Of a stretch of DNA of 64,000 nucleotides, positions 4,256-40,079 are shown piece by piece (positions within the stretch are counted from its first letter, which is position 1; the number at the start of each line of letters is the position of its first letter). Position numbers and translations under genes: made by a program. The notes under the pieces were generated by a model. That model made no database searches. It saw nothing but the letters and a program-made list of their open reading frames with translations, and was not told where the DNA came from. Source of the DNA: a virus; UHGV virus genome UHGV-1384413; one strand, 5' to 3'.

Positions 4256-5242
4256 TTATTTAACGTGTTTGAAAATACTCGCCAACTCGGTCATCGTCAT
4301 GCGGGTGGTCTTCATAAGGTCTGTCATAGCTTTTTCCATAATCGGTGATACTACCATGAAGTTACCTTTAGTGAAACCTTTGTTCCAATCGGTTACCAAC
4401 AGAGGTTTGATTCCTGCCCCAAGACGCTCACCAGTTAAAGCACAGCATTTGCGGATGTACGCACTCTTAAATTGGCTGAAGGACAGATCAACTTTCATAC
4501 CTGCATCGTAGAACGTTTGGCAATAGAAAGTGTAAGCCTTGGCAATCTCAACATCATCAGGCAGTGCAGGAACCTCTTCTGCAACCTCCTCTTCGACCTC
4601 CTGAGGCTCTTTTTCCTCTTCAAAGGGCTGTTGCACCATTTCTTCAATTTCTTCTGTCACAGGCTCGTTTACGATGTCTGAAATGTGTTTGTTGGCTGCA
4701 CGCTCTGCCATGAAATTCTTAAAGTCCTGCATTGGTGACATATCTTCCTCCTCTTCGTCAAATAGTGCTAGTTTATCTTCTTCTGTCCCGTATTGCAAGA
4801 TGAAATCTTCAAAAGTATATTCATCTTTTAATTCCTCCATCCTCTCTTCGCTCAGGTGGAGCATCATTTGTTGGACAATTTTTCGATCAGTTTTGTCCTT
4901 AATCAAGATTGCGGTCGTTTTATCTACCAGACAATCCTTGAGAGAGTTGCACCGAAGTCCCACCACACAACAGTTATCAATTGCGTAAGGACCTTCATCG
5001 TTTATCCGCTCCAAAGATGGGTAGAACGGATTCCCCAGCCCGTTTTCATCTGTGTGCATGTCAAAAGGAATAAGGGTGTAGTCGCATACCCCCTCTCCTA
5101 AAAGTTTTTTACCGAATAGGAGGTATTCTTCCCACGACAGGTCGAACACTATACCTCGTTTTCGGGCATTATTCTGTTTGCGTCTGTATTTTTTGAGCAG
5201 GCGTTCTAGCTCTTCTGGTGTATAATATTTTTCAAGATTCAT
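4256..5242 (-). CDS. hypothetical protein with internal duplication and acidic linker
   Basis: Start moved to internal ATG (M66 of track ORF) because the longer ORF overlaps the divergent plus gene; two related segments (FDLSWEEY / VDLSFSQF) flank a Glu-rich linker. Confidence 0.5.
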   Translation of the reverse strand: MNLEKYYTPEELERLLKKYRRKQNNARKRGIVFDLSWEEYLLFGKKLLGEGVCDYTLIPFDMHTDENGLGNPFYPSLERINDEGPYAIDNCCVVGLRCNSLKDCLVDKTTAILIKDKTDRKIVQQMMLHLSEERMEELKDEYTFEDFILQYGTEEDKLALFDEEEEDMSPMQDFKNFMAERAANKHISDIVNEPVTEEIEEMVQQPFEEEKEPQEVEEEVAEEVPALPDDVEIAKAYTFYCQTFYDAGMKVDLSFSQFKSAYIRKCCALTGERLGAGIKPLLVTDWNKGFTKGNFMVVSPIMEKAMTDLMKTTRMTMTELASIFKHVK

Positions 5243-16165: not shown

Positions 16166-16192
16166 GCCCTGCCCGAAAGGGTGGGGCTTTTT
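16166..16192 (+). terminator. intrinsic terminator (copy 1 of duplicated hairpin)
   Basis: GCCCTGCCC-gaaa-GGGTGGGGC hairpin plus TTTTT; identical hairpin recurs near 26325. Confidence 0.65.
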
Positions 16193-26324: not shown

Positions 26325-26353
26325 GCCCTGCCCGAAAGGGTGGGGCATTTTTG
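26325..26353 (+). terminator. intrinsic terminator (copy 2 of duplicated hairpin)
   Basis: Same GCCCTGCCC-gaaa-GGGTGGGGC hairpin as near 16166, followed by T-run. Confidence 0.65.
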
Positions 26354-30000: not shown

Positions 30001-30156
30001 GATGTGCTGCTCATTCTATCGTTCGCACCGTACTTTAAGTCACTATTCCAGATTTTCCGCACATACTCTCACCCTTCTACCAGAACTTTCCCAGCTTACC
30101 TCTGACCTTTTATAACAATAAGTCCATTATTATCAGAAAGTTTCGGCACATCTCTC

Positions 30157-30340
30157 TCGGTACTCGATCTGTTTTTCATTTCAAAGACCTGATTTTCTGA
30201 AAATTTTTCTCGATAAATTTCTTAGTACTCGATCTGTTTTTCGTTTTCTGAATCAGATTTTCTGGAAATCGTTCCGGCGCTCGACCTAAAATTTTTGGGG
30301 ACGAAATCGATTTTTCGTTTTCAGAAATGGATTTTTAAAA
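30157..30340. repeat. tandem imperfect direct repeats (about 66-bp units) in AT-rich non-coding region
   Basis: GTACTCGATCTGTTTTTC(A/G)TTT...ATTTTCTG(A/G)AAAT occurs twice in tandem, with further degenerate copies (TCGATTTTTCGTTTTC); approximate coordinates. Confidence 0.5.
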
Positions 30341-31789: not shown

Positions 31790-31871
31790 AAATTGTTGAC
31801 ACGCTGCAAAATTCAAGTAAACTAATCACAAAAGGCGGGAAACATTCCCGCCAACACAAAGGAAAAAGATC

Positions 31872-32276
31872 ATGAATAAGAACGTACGCCGCATCATGAA
31901 CGAGCTGGCAAACGATGAAAAAATTATTGACATGCATTTGATCAACATTTGCCGCCGTTGTGTAACATATAACAACCGCGCCGCAAAAGCGCGTGAGATG
32001 AACGCAAAAGGCACCTTAAAGCCCTTCCAGGTGGTGGTAAAGGCCATTAAAGATGTAACTAATACGGCAAACCAGGTACAGGGGAACACCAACGAGAGTA
32101 CCAGTATTGATCCGGCTTACATCATGAAACGGATCCGGACCTGCAAGAACAAAGAGCAAGTGTATAACGTCATAGACTGGTTGGATTCCATGGGCGACGT
32201 GGTGTACAATAGGTTTTCTGCAGCTATCGAGATCCAGCTTGACAGGTTGGACGGGAAAGTACTGAAAACTTACTAA
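31872..32276 (+). CDS. hypothetical protein (134 aa)
   Basis: ORF with AAAGGAAAAAG RBS; TTGACA promoter-like hexamer about 75 bp upstream. Confidence 0.5.
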   Translation: MNKNVRRIMNELANDEKIIDMHLINICRRCVTYNNRAAKAREMNAKGTLKPFQVVVKAIKDVTNTANQVQGNTNESTSIDPAYIMKRIRTCKNKEQVYNVIDWLDSMGDVVYNRFSAAIEIQLDRLDGKVLKTY

Positions 32277-32277
32277 G

Positions 32278-32322
32278 TTTATTTTTAGATGGCCTTGACT
32301 CCAGGGCCATCAATAAAGTAAA
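32278..32322. repeat. conserved 45-bp hairpin element, copy 1
   Basis: TTATTTTTAGATGGCC-ttgactccag-GGCCATCAATAAAGTAAAC directly after stop codon; 7-bp stem GATGGCC/GGCCATC. Confidence 0.55.
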
Positions 32323-32356
32323 CTAATCTCAGTTAAGCGAAAAAGGGGGCTTTAAG

Positions 32357-32476
32357 ATGAGCACTACACGCCAATACACAAAGGTAACTATTATCGTTTG
32401 CGTTGTCGGTTACATCCTGGCGCAAATGTTAATGAGTAGCGCTAACAGTTTTGCAAAATTTTTCTTAAATTTTTAA
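32357..32476 (+). CDS. small hydrophobic peptide (39 aa), tentative
   Basis: ATG after GGGGG RBS; TM-like KVTIIVCVVGYILAQMLM; not in ORF track; approximate coordinates. Confidence 0.3.
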   Translation: MSTTRQYTKVTIIVCVVGYILAQMLMSSANSFAKFFLNF

Positions 32477-32504
32477 TTGACAAGCTAACTTAGATTGATA
32501 TACT
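32477..32504 (+). promoter_or_regulatory. sigma70-type promoter
   Basis: TTGACA, 16-bp spacer, TATACT; approximate coordinates. Confidence 0.55.
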
Positions 32505-32555
32505 TAAACACGTAAACGGGAAAACTTCCCAGAACACACAAAAGGAGAAAACATT

Positions 32556-32906
32556 ATGAATACTTCCATCACTATGACCGCCGAAGAAAAAGCCCTGCAG
32601 ATCGCCGCTCTGAAAAAACAGATTGCAGAACTTGAAGACAAGATCGACAATTTTGAAATCGACGAAGACAAATACGACGATAAATATGATGAATGGCTAG
32701 ACGAAATCTATGGCGAAATTATGATCGGTTGTATCTCTTTTCTTCCGTCGCATATCCTCAAAGAGCTAGATCCTATCGCTTACCGCTGTGGCTTTAGTGA
32801 TTATATTGATAGCCTAGATATTGAAGATGACGAAGACTATCAGGAATTGCAAGCGGAGCTTGAAGAAGTGAAAGAAGAGCTTGCAGAACTGGAAGAAAAC
32901 GAGTAA
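32556..32906 (+). CDS. hypothetical acidic coiled-coil protein (116 aa)
   Basis: ORF with AAGGAGA RBS; Glu/Asp-rich with heptad-like repeats. Confidence 0.5.
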   Translation: MNTSITMTAEEKALQIAALKKQIAELEDKIDNFEIDEDKYDDKYDEWLDEIYGEIMIGCISFLPSHILKELDPIAYRCGFSDYIDSLDIEDDEDYQELQAELEEVKEELAELEENE

Positions 32907-32907
32907 G

Positions 32908-32952
32908 CTTATTTTTAGATGGCCTTGATTCCAGGGCCATCAATAAAGTAAA
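32908..32952. repeat. conserved 45-bp hairpin element, copy 2
   Basis: Near-identical to copy 1, directly after stop codon. Confidence 0.55.
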
Positions 32953-32995
32953 CTTTACACTGTTAACACTGAACTAATACAGAGGAGTTAAAACC

Positions 32996-33241
32996 ATGGC
33001 CGCACTAATTACCAAATATTATGCCCCTACCAACACCAAAAGCGCCCGTATCATGGTAAAAGGCTTCGGACGTAAAAAGGTTTACACCTGGGATTATTCC
33101 CTAGACATGGAAGACAACTACACCAACGCAATGACCGATTTTATTAATGATCTGAATAAACAGATCTTGACCGACTACAAAGTGACCGATATTGCCTACG
33201 TCGGGGAAGGCGGGATCTGTTTTGTAGGCATTGTGAAATAG
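32996..33241 (+). CDS. hypothetical protein (81 aa)
   Basis: ORF with GAGGAG RBS. Confidence 0.5.
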   Translation: MAALITKYYAPTNTKSARIMVKGFGRKKVYTWDYSLDMEDNYTNAMTDFINDLNKQILTDYKVTDIAYVGEGGICFVGIVK

Positions 33242-33287
33242 TTATTTTTTCGGTGGTCCTGGCTGCAGGGCCATCTATAAAGATAAT
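33242..33287. repeat. conserved hairpin element, diverged copy 3
   Basis: TTATTTTTTCGGTGGTCCTGGCTGCAGGGCCATCTATAAAGATAAT; same position relative to stop codon. Confidence 0.4.
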
Positions 33288-33316
33288 TTATTAACACCAT
33301 GAAAGGAGAAAGTAAC

Positions 33317-33670
33317 ATGATCAGCGGTGCAAGTTTTATCATTGGCGCTATTGCTACGGCTTTAATTGTAAACAAGATCCAATCCAAAAACGAAAAAGAG
33401 AGCAACGCCTTTACAGAATACCCATTTTGGGTATTCAACGACAACGAAGACTATATAATCAAGTACAAGGATGAGAAGGGCGACCAGGTAACACCACGAC
33501 CGATCCCGGCTTACAAGATGCAAGAAACACTATACCGCCTAAAGGCTGGAGGCGCAAAAATCGTAGACTTTTGGGGATATGATTGCAAGGATCAGGAGGT
33601 TATAAAACGGCGTATCCGTGCGATTCAGGCAAATATTGAAATCAGTAAAGGGGGAAGTTATGAAAATTAA
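33317..33670 (+). CDS. predicted membrane-anchored protein
   Basis: ATG at M7 of track ORF with AAGGAGA RBS; N-terminal hydrophobic helix. Confidence 0.5.
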   Translation: MISGASFIIGAIATALIVNKIQSKNEKESNAFTEYPFWVFNDNEDYIIKYKDEKGDQVTPRPIPAYKMQETLYRLKAGGAKIVDFWGYDCKDQEVIKRRIRAIQANIEISKGGSYEN

Positions 33671-33857
33671 TTTCGAAAAAATTGTAAAGCGCCCTCATGA
33701 TTCCGAAGAGTTGCCGAAACGCCGCCAGCGTAACAATAAACTGAATAAGCCAAAAAGGTTTGGGAAGATCTGGCGGAATCACTATGATCGCAAATTACCG
33801 GGCCTGCTTTTGGAACGTGAACGACAGGCAGAACGATACCGCCATAAAGACAAATAA
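33660..33857 (+). CDS. small basic protein
   Basis: ATG at M15 of track ORF with GGGGGAAG RBS; Lys/Arg-rich. Confidence 0.4.
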   Translation: MKINFEKIVKRPHDSEELPKRRQRNNKLNKPKRFGKIWRNHYDRKLPGLLLERERQAERYRHKDK

Positions 33858-33868
33858 CAACCAACGCC

Positions 33869-33893
33869 CCGCCATTGTGCGGGGCTTTTTATT
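33869..33893 (+). terminator. intrinsic terminator
   Basis: GCCCCGC-cattgt-GCGGGGC hairpin plus TTTTT; approximate coordinates. Confidence 0.6.
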
Positions 33894-34038
33894 TCTATCC
33901 CGCCGATAGCGCCCCTGGTTGGCCCCACAAGCCCCCTAAAAGCCCCTACCTATGCAATCCCCTTTCTTAACCTGAAAACAGCGCCCAGGGCCGTTTTATG
34001 GCGTTAAAAATATTATTGACAGTGATTTTATTTAAAGC

Positions 34039-34066
34039 TTGACATCTTAAACAGGTTAGATATACT
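34039..34066 (+). promoter_or_regulatory. sigma70-type promoter (second TTGACA 23 bp upstream)
   Basis: TTGACA, 16-bp spacer, TATACT; approximate coordinates. Confidence 0.55.
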
Positions 34067-34098
34067 AACCACATCAAAGAGAGAAAGGAGTAAACGCC

Positions 34099-34359
34099 AT
34101 GCGTAAATTAAAAAATTTTGATAAGGTTGATGTTGTCCTGAATAATTTTTACTACTGCAACAACAAGGCCATTTGGTGGCGTGATAGTTCCACCGATAAA
34201 GTCAAGGCGCGCTTTCTCCAGGGGCACTGGCAAGGCCGCCCAGTGATTAAAATCATGGGGCAATTGGCAGCGTTTAAAAATTGCCGCCGTGTTGATGACG
34301 TTGAAGAGATTTTAAACATTTTGCGCCACAATAATTTAAAAAATAGCGTTGACAAGTAA
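34099..34359 (+). CDS. hypothetical protein (86 aa)
   Basis: ORF with AAAGGAG RBS. Confidence 0.5.
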   Translation: MRKLKNFDKVDVVLNNFYYCNNKAIWWRDSSTDKVKARFLQGHWQGRPVIKIMGQLAAFKNCRRVDDVEEILNILRHNNLKNSVDK

Positions 34360-34375
34360 ATCTAGATAAGTATAC
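34348..34375 (+). promoter_or_regulatory. sigma70-type promoter overlapping the 3-prime end of the upstream gene
   Basis: TTGACA, 16-bp spacer, TATACT; approximate coordinates. Confidence 0.5.
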
Positions 34376-34433
34376 TTAAACACACAGGCGGGAAAACTTC
34401 CCGCCACTAACAAAGAAAATAGGAGAAAATATC

Positions 34434-35057
34434 ATGACCACCGTTAACATTACCACAGGTTACAATTTATCTTTCGACGTGCTGACCGATGAACAAAAAG
34501 AAAAAGCTATTGAAATGGTCCGCGAAAGAGAAGAACACAGCGGGGATAACTTTTTTGCAGAAAGTGTAATTGAAGACTATAAAGAATATATCTTTCCAGA
34601 GTATGGCCTTGAAGATACCAAGGTACATTGGTCCGGCTTTTGGTGCCAGGGTGACGGCGCGTCAATCAGTGCGGAAAACGTGGATTTAGAAAAATTCTTG
34701 CGTAAAGTCAAGTCTCTGACTAAATTCCGCTCAATTCGTCACTTGTTCGGCACAATGCACGATGGCGAGCTATCCGCAAGTGTTGAGCGTGATCCATATA
34801 GCCGCTATAGTCACGAAAACACTGTAAGCGGGTACATCGATACTACATGGCTAGACCTGACAGCCAAGCAAGAAAGTAAGGTTGAAGAGCTGGAAGAGTT
34901 GATCACCGAGACGGTGCGGGAGCTATCCCGCAAGGTTTACGTAGACCTGGAGCAAGCTTATCTTGAACAATTTACTACCGAAAACCTGATCGGCCTTATC
35001 GAGGCCAATGATTGGCGGTTTGATGTGGATGAATATGGCGAGATGACTTTTTCATAA
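34434..35057 (+). CDS. hypothetical protein (207 aa)
   Basis: ORF with AGGAGA RBS; HWSGFWCQGDGASI motif not assigned to a family. Confidence 0.5.
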   Translation: MTTVNITTGYNLSFDVLTDEQKEKAIEMVREREEHSGDNFFAESVIEDYKEYIFPEYGLEDTKVHWSGFWCQGDGASISAENVDLEKFLRKVKSLTKFRSIRHLFGTMHDGELSASVERDPYSRYSHENTVSGYIDTTWLDLTAKQESKVEELEELITETVRELSRKVYVDLEQAYLEQFTTENLIGLIEANDWRFDVDEYGEMTFS

Positions 35058-35065
35058 ATAAAGTG

Positions 35066-35093
35066 TTGCAATAACCTAAAAACCTGCTATATT
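35066..35093 (+). promoter_or_regulatory. sigma70-type promoter
   Basis: TTGCAA, 16-bp spacer, TATATT; approximate coordinates. Confidence 0.45.
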
Positions 35094-35145
35094 AAAACTC
35101 AAGGGGCAAGACGTTTGCCCCACACAAAACAAAGAGGAAAACATT

Positions 35146-35526
35146 ATGAAAAGCACCACTAAAGCCATTGACACCGTTATGTTTAACCTGGTTACCTTTC
35201 GTGAGGATATGAAAGATCTTCCACGTGAAACAGTGTGCGATCACATCGAAAACTATCGCAAACTGATCAAACAACTGCCTTTAAAACGTGACCAATATGC
35301 GGCTAACGCTATGCTTAACGCCATGATCAAAAAGATGATCCAGTGTGATTTAACTCTGGCCTATGATTATGCAGGCGGTCGTTTTGCAGTATACAATCAG
35401 CCCGTGCCCGGTATGAGCACCACTGAAGAATTGCACGCGTTAAATCTAAAACAAGATGTATGGGATAGCATGCCCCGCGTGGTGGTGTGGGCAGAAAGCG
35501 GAAAGATTTACGGCGATAATTTTTAA
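35146..35526 (+). CDS. hypothetical protein (126 aa)
   Basis: ORF with AAGAGGA RBS. Confidence 0.5.
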   Translation: MKSTTKAIDTVMFNLVTFREDMKDLPRETVCDHIENYRKLIKQLPLKRDQYAANAMLNAMIKKMIQCDLTLAYDYAGGRFAVYNQPVPGMSTTEELHALNLKQDVWDSMPRVVVWAESGKIYGDNF

Positions 35527-35593
35527 TCAGGTAACAGGCGGCGGCATATTTGCCGCCTTATTGTTAAGCAGAATTGTAAGAGAGGTACACAGA

Positions 35594-35965
35594 ATGGAAT
35601 TTATTATTTTGGCTGTATTAGTTGCCTTGTTCAACGCCTGGATAGCTGGCAAAACAGGTAGATCCGCTTTTCTATGGTTTGTTATATCTATTTTCCTGGG
35701 AGTGGTTGCAACCATTGTATTAGTTATCCTTGCAATTGTTGACAAGGATAATAATAAGAAAGGTAAAGTATTTTCCGACCTGTATGACGCTCAAACTTTT
35801 GTTAACGCCTATTATAGTGATCTTCCGGTCTCCTTGCGCTGCAGCCTAGCGCAACAAGTTTTCGATGAAGCTAAAACCAGAGAACAGGCCCATGAAATAT
35901 GTCTAACCGAGGCAGATCGCCTATTCGAGAGGAATAGAAAATATGTGGACCAGCCGTTTAAATAA
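35594..35965 (+). CDS. predicted membrane protein (two TM helices)
   Basis: ATG at M47 of track ORF with AGAGAGG RBS; two hydrophobic stretches. Confidence 0.5.
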   Translation: MEFIILAVLVALFNAWIAGKTGRSAFLWFVISIFLGVVATIVLVILAIVDKDNNKKGKVFSDLYDAQTFVNAYYSDLPVSLRCSLAQQVFDEAKTREQAHEICLTEADRLFERNRKYVDQPFK

Positions 35966-36184
35966 TGCCACGTTAATTAATCCCTTTAGTGAAGATTTGA
36001 AGCCAGCGGCCTGGCGTGAGGGATTCAACACAGAAAGATTTATTTTCAGGCCTGACCTTGAGGAATTTTATAACAATGGATCGAACAACGACAGAGATAA
36101 TTTTTCTTGTAATGTGCGTGGTGATAATACTCCTGGGGGCCATTACAAACCACGTCACTGCTAACAGGAGGAAAGGGGGAGACG

Positions 36185-36304
36185 ATGACAACCAAGGATA
36201 AGCCCCGCACCGATAAGGTGCGCCGTGTTATGGTATGGCTTGAGATCATCGCCCTTGAAATATTGTTAGGCGTAGGGATGTACTTTATCGCTGTAAGTAA
36301 CTGA
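36185..36304 (+). CDS. small membrane peptide (39 aa), tentative
   Basis: ATG with AGGAGG/GGGGGAG RBS; hydrophobic C-terminal half; followed by terminator hairpin; not in ORF track; approximate coordinates. Confidence 0.35.
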   Translation: MTTKDKPRTDKVRRVMVWLEIIALEILLGVGMYFIAVSN

Positions 36305-36308
36305 TAAC

Positions 36309-36338
36309 GGCCCCCAATCCCTGGGGGCTTAACTTTTT
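36309..36338 (+). terminator. intrinsic terminator
   Basis: GCCCCCA-atccc-TGGGGGC hairpin then T-run; approximate coordinates. Confidence 0.5.
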
Positions 36339-36360
36339 CAAAAATTTTTCTTCTAGGGTG

Positions 36361-36389
36361 TTGCAATCCGGTCCGGAATATGGATAATA
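36361..36389 (+). promoter_or_regulatory. sigma70-type promoter, extended -10
   Basis: TTGCAA, 17-bp spacer, TGgATAATA; same ATATGGATAATAA box as promoter near 37170. Confidence 0.5.
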
Positions 36390-36440
36390 ACAATCAACGG
36401 GGAGCAATCCCCACCACAAAGACTAGAAAGGAGAAACAAA

Positions 36441-36641
36441 ATGAGTAACAATATCCGCGTTATTAACTTCAAAAAAGAAGAAAAAATTGCCGTGCTGATT
36501 GACGGTCAAGAAATCTTTAAAGGTGATTATGAAGATCATCAAACGGCGATTAGTATCACTCGCGTGATTGGTTACCATAATTTTTACCCTCAAGGCGCTG
36601 AGGCAGCAGTAAAACGAATTAAAGAGATTGTAGGCCTGTAA
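36441..36641 (+). CDS. hypothetical protein (66 aa)
   Basis: ORF with AAAGGAGA RBS. Confidence 0.5.
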   Translation: MSNNIRVINFKKEEKIAVLIDGQEIFKGDYEDHQTAISITRVIGYHNFYPQGAEAAVKRIKEIVGL

Positions 36642-36643
36642 AA

Positions 36644-36688
36644 TTTATTTTTAGATGGCCTTGATTCCAGGGCCATCAATAAAGTAAA
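36644..36688. repeat. conserved 45-bp hairpin element, copy 4
   Basis: Near-identical to copies 1 and 2, directly after stop codon. Confidence 0.55.
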
Positions 36689-36726
36689 TTTAAACCCTGT
36701 TAAAATAATCAGTGCAAAAAGGAGTA

Positions 36727-39535: not shown

Positions 39536-39550
39536 TCCTTATTGACTAGA

Positions 39551-39579
39551 AAACAGGGCTTGCAATGGTCCTGTTTTTT
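39551..39579 (+). terminator. intrinsic terminator
   Basis: AACAGGGC...GTCCTGTT hairpin followed by TTTTTT; approximate coordinates. Confidence 0.55.
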
Positions 39580-39595
39580 GTTATACTTATTCCAC

Positions 39596-40019: not shown

Positions 40020-40079
40020 TAAGATAATGACAAGGGCCGAAAGGCCCACTAATCAGAACCGCACAAAGAGGAAAACATC

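Follow-up and report, generated by a model that had tools for sequence, protein, structure and literature searches.

The DNA analysed here, a stretch of 64,000 nucleotides from the viral genome UHGV-1384413 (the window), belongs to an rV5-like coliphage of the genus Vequintavirus, the region concerned being 92-94% identical to Escherichia phage rV5 and ~120 other Vequintavirus genomes. Four copies of a repeated intergenic element, named E1, E2, E3 and E4 in window order, lie in its early region and each begins at a stop codon. The element is read as a composite intergenic cassette in which an early sigma-70-like promoter is folded into a hairpin and which would combine RNA, promoter and recombination roles; the probability of this reading is put at about 0.5.

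Under the composite reading, read-through transcripts of the upstream gene would include the element, and their sense RNA would fold into a two-tier hairpin of 20-24 bp starting from the stop codon. Between the cistrons the hairpin would signal processing or confer stability, most likely as a single-cut site of RNase III type resembling the early R sites of T7, so that a protective 3' hairpin stays on the upstream cistron; at the minimum it would be a barrier to 3' exonucleases. The DNA would also be a modest internal promoter for the next gene, as its geometry and one natural promoter replacement suggest, and transcripts begun at that promoter would be without the hairpin. Furthermore, genome comparison shows the ~50-63-bp repeat to be a site of homologous recombination, where small gene modules are deleted, inserted and transferred and the copies homogenised.

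Copies and fold of the element

The preliminary description of this DNA had placed near-identical hairpin elements after the stops of genes ending at 32276, 32906 and 36641, with a diverged copy after 33241, and all four were recovered by a core scan and by a covariance model; the upstream open reading frames (ORFs), which are on the + strand, end at the positions given. The core GATGGCC-N10-GGCCATC, with at most two mismatches, occurs four times in the window, always on the + strand, at 32288, 32918, 33252 and 36654; 0.12 occurrences are expected by chance and none of 100 shuffles got to four. With at most one mismatch the full 45-mer has three matches (0.00 expected), its near-identical copies lying at 32279-32323, 32909-32953 and 36645-36689, and a repeat finder extends the unit to 63 nt and takes in the diverged copy (32274-32336, 32904-32966, 33238-33300 and 36640-36702). 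The covariance model, built from 33 distinct copies and run with filters off, returned just E1-E4 in the window, at 69-84 bits, the next match scoring 13.6 bits. No further diverged copy was found there or elsewhere in the complete 137-kb genome of phage RudolfGeigy, which likewise has four copies only.

Related phages carry the element too, with the position of each copy kept across ~120 genomes. The flanking genes are ORFans of unknown function from different, unrelated PHROG families, and a duplicated gene cassette with paralogous flanking genes was rejected on that ground. No further copies were found in the early regions of Avunavirus phages or in unrelated loci carrying a homologue of the neighbouring 207-aa gene, while scans of IMG/VR and of metagenomes gave a few additional rV5-like contigs and no distant family members. 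An exact-pattern search of 185,579 species-representative genomes gave no match to the element, and a host-derived REP/ERIC-type repeat was rejected, with no match in 5,426 complete E. coli genomes. The whole window has no Rfam match at gathering thresholds, and a local E-value search gave only chance-level matches over the copies (16.2 and 22.2 bits, against gathering thresholds of 90 and 55). A stimulator of stop-codon read-through or frameshifting was also considered and dropped, the reading frames past the four stops being without a common pattern.

On the sense strand all copies fold alike: a lower stem of at least 10 bp is separated by a 2x3 internal loop from a 10-bp upper stem, which ends in a tetraloop. 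The lower stem, of 10-13 bp, pairs AGUUUAUUUU with AAAGUAAACU and starts from the last base of the stop codon; it joins the upstream T-run to the A-rich 3' segment 'AATAAAGTAAA'. The upper stem pairs GAUGGCCUUG with CAGGGCCAUC. Folding energies of the window copies are -22.3 to -25.0 kcal/mol (z-scores -4.4 to -6.0), RNAalifold gives the same two-tier structure on the alignment of copies, and 33 of 33 distinct copies share the fold at -20.7 to -30.1 kcal/mol. The 7-bp stem with a 10-nt loop of the preliminary description is thus replaced by a 10-bp upper stem with a tetraloop, standing on the lower stem. The T-run does lie ahead of the sequence then taken for the hairpin, as had been reported, but it is not outside the structure, since it forms the lower stem.

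The copies and their parts are as follows.

32276-32324, + strand: E1, two-tier hairpin; -25.0 kcal/mol, z-score -5.7; 83.8 bits
32276-32285 with 32315-32324, + strand: E1 lower stem
32286-32287 and 32312-32314, + strand: E1 internal loop
32288-32297 with 32302-32311, + strand: E1 upper stem; tetraloop 32298-32301
32295-32300 and 32319-32324, + strand: E1 hexamers, -35-like TTGACT and -10-like TAAACT
32274-32276: TAA stop of the ORF194 homologue, at whose last base E1 begins; next gene from 32357
32906-32954, + strand: E2, architecture as E1; -22.3 kcal/mol, z-score -4.4; 80.7 bits
32918-32927 with 32932-32941, + strand: E2 upper stem
32925-32930 and 32949-32954, + strand: E2 hexamers, TTGATT and TAAACT
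32904-32906: stop of the ORF192 homologue, followed by E2; next gene from 32996
33240-33288, + strand: E3, diverged, 63% identical to E1 over the 63-nt unit; 69 bits
33252-33261 with 33266-33275, + strand: E3 upper stem, with three G.U/U.G changes
33239-33241: stop followed by E3; next gene from 33317
36642-36690, + strand: E4; -23.6 kcal/mol, z-score -6.0; 80 bits
36654-36663 with 36668-36677, + strand: E4 upper stem
36661-36666 and 36685-36690, + strand: E4 hexamers, TTGATT and TAAATT
36639-36641: stop of the ORF179 homologue, followed by E4; next gene from 36733

Base pairing and strand

The pairing was followed through the 33 distinct sequences, which come from ~20 genomes (GenBank relatives, two IMG/VR contigs and several metagenome contigs). 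Standard pairs fill 98.5% of the 660 pair cells, against 35-55% after the 3' partners are slid by 1-3 columns. Two-sided changes that keep the pair occur at four lower-stem pairs, namely 6/52 (GC, AU, GU), 7/51 (UA, CG), 9/49 (UA, AU, GU, GC) and 10/48 (AU, UA), and at the four variable pairs of the upper stem every change is made through G.U alone. Within the window, E4 has a T at 36689 that pairs with the A at 36643, where E1 has a C-G pair, and E3 has compensatory swaps in its lower stem.

Each copy has 2-5 wobble pairs, and it is these G.U wobbles that make the fold specific to the sense strand. Wobble cells number 79 on the + strand and 7 on the complementary strand, mismatches 10 and 82, and in every one of the 33 copies the + strand fold is the stabler, with a mean difference of 8.8 kcal/mol. 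For E3 the + strand folds at -22.4 kcal/mol (z-score -4.6) and the - strand at -10.5 kcal/mol (z-score -0.4), which is no better than shuffled sequence. All neighbouring genes are coded on the + strand, and therefore the structure points to mRNA. Diversity among 11 genomes is 0.018-0.039 for E1, E2 and E4; the remainder of their spacers reaches 0.06-0.11 and third codon positions in the flanking genes 0.09-0.18. Meanwhile, the internal loop varies in sequence (AAU, GAU, AGU, AAAU, UAU) yet is closed in no copy, which fits a structural determinant.

Because of the covariation and the strand asymmetry, purifying selection is assigned to the RNA structure, and with high confidence the sense-strand RNA hairpin is under selection. 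The preliminary description had proposed that the element could double as a promoter or a processing site; a selected RNA structure, larger than first described, fits the processing half of that suggestion.

Promoter-like hexamers and exchange of modules

E1, E2 and E4 share a layout of upstream T-tract, TTGACN (TTGATT in E2 and E4 of the window), 18 bp and TAAAYT, with 8-9 of 12 matches to the consensus hexamers. The sigma-70-like arrangement proposed earlier, TTGA(C/T)T and TAAACT 18 bp further on, therefore holds at the level of sequence in the form TTGAYT-18-TAAAYT. Most relatives have TTGACT (a 5/6 match) and one has TTGACA. The -35 lies in the apical loop and upper stem and the -10 in the 3' arm of the lower stem. 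The layout is like that of the phage's own early promoters, e.g. the promoter at 31796 (TTGACA-16-TAAACT), and PhagePromoter calls in the GenBank record of phage Gotham cover E2-E4.

Stronger evidence for a promoter is the natural replacement found in phage KKE7M (Stephanstirmvirinae, Justusliebigvirus), which has one copy of the element and was aligned with its relative muut and with the window. A ~440-bp Vequintavirus module, which begins at the -10 of promoter P192, takes in the 5' stem-loop and ORF192 and ends in the element, is inserted into the resident promoter TTGACAAGATAACTAAAATCAGTAAACT. The left crossover lies within 20 nt of common -35 and spacer sequence, and the right crossover is at AGTAAA(C/T)T, which is the resident -10 on one side and the -10-like hexamer of the element on the other. 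Compared with muut, the TAAATT of the element stands in the exact place of the resident TAAACT, 11 nt before the resident 5' stem-loop, a distance within the 8-13 nt of other KKE7M cassettes. This register with the replaced -10 indicates that the 3' arm of the element is homologous to a real -10 region and can replace it. The conclusion drawn is that an early promoter gave rise to the element, which may still be active as one, while selection acts mainly on the RNA; that it is an active promoter is given roughly even odds.

Hairpins enclosing a promoter hexamer recur in this phage group. At 39547-39590 of the window (+ strand) there is a terminator-promoter unit, with a hairpin AAAACAGGGC/GGTCCTGTTTT that has a -35-like TTGCAA in its loop, a T-run after the hairpin and then an extended -10, TGnTATACT (TGTTATACT). 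Such coupled units are like the element in having the -35 in the hairpin loop and the -10 close behind, but the T-run of the unit at 39547-39590 comes after the stem, as in a canonical terminator, whereas that of the element precedes the stem and makes the lower helix. A non-homologous spacer of KKE7M (4470-4566) holds a long interrupted hairpin at or near a stop codon with a -35 (TTGACA) in its loop, and three spacers of phage Av-05 (13337-13413, 16391-16482 and 17560-17656) hold similar non-homologous hairpins at or near stop codons with a -10 (TAGAAT or TATAAT) in the loop.

Nearly every strong sigma-70 promoter of the early region is followed, 8-13 nt past its -10, by a short GC-rich stem-loop, e.g. 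GCGGGAAAACTTCCCGC, by which the transcript would have a hairpin right at its 5' end, possibly to stabilise the mRNA. In KKE7M the promoter and stem-loop cassette, with near-identical stem-loops, occupies most spacers. In the window, cassettes of this kind lie at the following positions.

31796-31852: promoter and 5' stem-loop
32477-32530: promoter and 5' stem-loop
34349-34405: promoter and 5' stem-loop
35066-35121: promoter and 5' stem-loop
36361-36416: promoter and 5' stem-loop
~40034-40047: promoter and 5' stem-loop

The cassette at 32477-32530 is part of the gene module that separates E1 from E2.

32325-32905, + strand: gene module between E1 and E2
32357-32476: small ORF of the module
32477-32504: strong sigma-70 promoter of the module
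~32518-32530: 5' stem-loop of the module
32556-32906: ORF192 homologue

Three relatives, phiWec189, ECP26 and the IMG/VR contig 2051223002_000007, are without 630 bp, i.e. the E1-E2 module and one element copy, and have a single chimeric element that is flanked on the left as E1 is and on the right as E2 is. A metagenomic E3 is itself recombinant, its 5' part coming from one of the two E3 haplotypes and its loop and 3' part from the second. Rare loop variants are found only as E2 and E4 pairs within one genome (ATTC in the window, ACAC in UViG_3300010279), and E1 and E4 of phage PDX share the internal-loop variant G, which E1 of rV5 has as well; rare variants common to two copies of one genome imply conversion over 3.7 kb. 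The KKE7M insertion adds a module transfer between phage subfamilies with its junctions in promoter homology. On these comparisons the copies are very probably a recombination hotspot, providing the crossover points themselves.

Known counterparts and alternative readings

On the best reading, the genomic role of the element is like that of the promoter-early stem-loops (PeSLs) of T4-type phages, and its RNA is like a T7 RNase III site. PeSLs are cassettes pairing an early promoter with a stem-loop, located between ORFans, that mediate modular shuffling (Arbiol et al. 2010, PMC2839356; Comeau et al. 2014, PMC4122927). They fall into five subclasses by the position of the stem-loop relative to the -35 and -10, one of which overlaps the -35 (PMC2839356). 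The element is similarly a repeated small intergenic cassette with putative sigma-70-type hexamers, an AT-rich upstream tract and a stable stem-loop, which in all 33 variants lies over the promoter-like sequence with the -35 in the apical loop and stem. It too sits between small ORFans of a plastic early region, and module deletion, insertion and replacement have their crossover points in its copies. The differences are that the element belongs to another lineage (Vequintavirinae) and has four copies per genome within 4.4 kb, whereas PeSLs are described as numerous and as densely populating hyperplastic regions; that its hairpin is two-tiered, with a conserved internal loop and without a U-tract; and that its putative promoter is sub-consensus (18-bp spacer, 8-9/12) and missing from one copy.

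For the RNA, the comparison is with the early RNase III sites of T7 (R0.3, R0.5, R1, R1.1 and R1.3). Two helical turns, which coaxial stems can provide, are the primary requirement of an RNase III substrate, and internal loops limit cutting to one strand, by which the upstream RNA keeps a protecting hairpin at its 3' end (Pertzev and Nicholson 2006, PMC1540722). With 10 bp, a 2x3 internal loop and 10-13 bp, the element has the required two turns (~20-22 bp) and, as a structural match only, the internal loop. Within 11 bp of the cleavage site, the preferred distal box is U-A/U.G and the E. coli proximal box is GC; AU or UA; AU; AU or UA (PMC1540722). Folding of the T7 sites gave R1.1 a 10-bp upper stem that reads, from the loop downward, closing pair, U-A, U.G, and the upper stem of the element reads G-C, U-A, U.G, placing the distal box as in R1.1. 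The proximal-box positions of the element are U-A, A-U, G-C and A.A, of which the A-U at the key position 2 fits (G.U in E3).

The T7 sites, like the element, are intercistronic hairpins of about two turns with an asymmetric internal loop and ~10-bp stems; copies within the genome resemble one another, and hairpins and promoters share a spacer. Unlike them, the element has a smaller internal loop (2x3) and an imperfect proximal box with a G-C adjoining that loop, it has no sequence homology to them, and its putative promoter is nested within the hairpin, which in T7 stands beside the promoter. Accordingly ranked among the possible modes of action, a single host RNase III cut on the 3' side of the internal loop is favoured and a 3' exonuclease block is the fallback; host RNase III itself is proposed only tentatively as the acting nuclease. 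As a separate observation, the operon that holds E2 and E3 ends in a 65-aa ORF (33660-33857, + strand) that matches Pfam PF08200, 'Bacteriophage 1.1 protein' (T7 gp1.1), at E = 4e-10, and the T7 gene directly follows the R1.1 RNase III site.

Several points weigh against the composite reading. Hexamers matching at 9/12 are common by chance, with 43 sites against 28.5 expected in 12 kb, and the TTGATT of E2 and E4 in the window is derived and brings the match to only 8/12. E3 is without a -35 match, and its '-10' drifts through GATAAT, GATAGT and GACAGT together with its pairing partner, while two E1 variants with insertions of 1-2 nt have a 19-20 bp spacer and keep the fold. The genomes are 90-99% identical, a shallow tree, and since they are so closely related the compensatory changes represent few independent events; gene conversion by itself also lowers diversity among copies. 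In phage Gotham, E1 (~4396-4440) is short of 5 bp, GGGCC, on the 3' side of its upper stem, so that the sequence reads GATGGCCTTGACTCCAATCAATAAAG; the deletion destroys both the upper stem and the promoter spacing, so that copy is dispensable in Gotham. The proximal box is a partial fit, neither the U-A at position 1 nor the G-C at position 3, next to the internal loop, being optimal, and no transcriptome or end-mapping study of a Vequintavirus was found in the literature.

The drift of E3 and the lengthened E1 spacers are also what a pure RNA element would be expected to show, one in which selection follows pairing and not the hexamers. The element would then be a site for RNase III or another endonuclease, or a 3'-end stabiliser in a polycistronic early mRNA, and the hexamers the unused relic of a promoter. 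In E1 and E4 the fifth base of TAAAYT, C or T, changes together with the upstream G or A that it pairs with, which counts against the promoter as the selected feature, and several E2 copies leave that pair mismatched (A.C); a match of 8-9/12 is, taken alone, weak evidence of a promoter. On the other hand, the KKE7M element is the sole promoter-like sequence before the resident gene and is aligned exactly with the promoter whose place it took, none of 27 E1, E2 and E4 sequences departs from TTGAC though two of its bases are in the loop, and promoters embedded in hairpins recur in the phage group. A pure RNA element is accordingly regarded as possible rather than probable.

The hairpin could also be the recognition site of a dedicated factor, such as a phage early protein or nuclease that binds the RNA or a hairpin extruded from the DNA. 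In that event the four sites would make up a small regulon, under which ORF193, ORF191, ORF190 and ORF177 would pass from read-through to autonomous, hairpin-dependent expression. Such a factor would fit the near-invariant stem bases of E1, E2 and E4 and an internal loop that is never closed, though neither feature requires one; both the factor and its regulon are considered unlikely. Were this true, the promoter would lie nested in an RNA structure because the two are mechanistically coupled, rather than by accident of descent.

A regulated promoter, with GATGGCC-N10-GGCCATC serving a dimeric regulator from phage or host as a double-stranded DNA operator around the -35, would account for the perfect 7-bp inverted repeat around the -35 in three copies and for the conservation of ~45 bp, beyond the need of a plain promoter. 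It is distinctly improbable, as E3, through its A to G and C to T changes, retains G.U pairs on one strand only and has the DNA palindrome reduced to 5/7, and the lower stem covaries and always has a U.G, which is unexpected for a protein-binding DNA palindrome. Moreover, the half-site centres are 17 bp apart and would not lie on one face of the helix.

Slightly less probable again is a transcription attenuator or terminator. The stable GC-rich hairpin does directly follow stop codons, and a reporter assay showed termination of transcription by the stem-loops of T4-type PeSLs (PMC2839356), but on neither strand is there a U-tract after the upper stem (AAUAAAG) or after the whole hairpin, A-rich sequence following instead. 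No copy appears in the terminator scan, which does list terminators nearby, at 33866, 35536 and 36309, among other sites. The element thus departs from PeSLs in this respect, and the earlier statement that it is not a canonical intrinsic terminator is borne out for both strands. Elsewhere in the window, a terminator-like hairpin, GCCCTGCCCGAAAGGGTGGGGC with a T-rich sequence after it, occurs in two nearly identical copies at 16166-16192 and 26325-26351, a distance of 10 kb.

Least probable is a functionless repeat or mobile mini-element like a miniature inverted-repeat transposable element (MITE), kept uniform by gene conversion: copies do swap variants and mediate indels, and E1 is broken in one phage, but the compensatory and wobble-only substitutions of the diverged E3 lineage indicate selection on pairing, each position is kept across the ~120 genomes, and the KKE7M transfer went by promoter homology and not by transposition. 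MITE-like insertion was rejected, as there is no consistent target-site duplication and the four copies lie within one 4.4-kb stretch, with none in bacterial genomes. E4 is flanked by a direct repeat, CCTGTAAAAT (36635-36644) and CCTGTTAAAAT (36696-36706), which was equalled in 35 of 2000 shuffles, is not significant over four tests and is probably due to chance; E1-E3 have no equivalent flanking repeat.

Two further observations concern the window and its relatives. Three ~47-nt direct repeats (core TCGATCTGTTTTTCGTTTT), 65-74 nt apart, lie at 30150-30335 (+ strand) in a stretch without long ORFs and may be iterons or origin-like repeats; similar repeated TCTCGATCG motifs are present in a long non-coding region of Av-05. 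In addition, 17 GenBank records (MG0656xx), named 'Campylobacter phage' with the host C. jejuni, are 92-96% identical to rV5-like coliphages over the region, and their naming or host assignment looks doubtful.

Phages of the rV5 type are often isolated and are used in E. coli biocontrol and therapy, and their transcription is known only by promoter and terminator prediction. The rV5 genome paper lists 33 promoters and 20 terminators and does not describe the repeat, and GenBank records have at most an automatic 'promoter' call over it; in rV5-like phages the element is so far undescribed. The advance is modest and brings no new principle, the design being known in outline from T4-like and T7 phages. 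If the composite reading is true, early operons would be processed post-transcriptionally in a phage family without a study of such processing, and the same 50 bp would hold a promoter and an RNA hairpin as a compact natural part. Furthermore, the PeSL idea that regulatory cassettes are the recombination sites of ORFan shuffling would reach beyond T4-like phages, with one case that crosses subfamilies.

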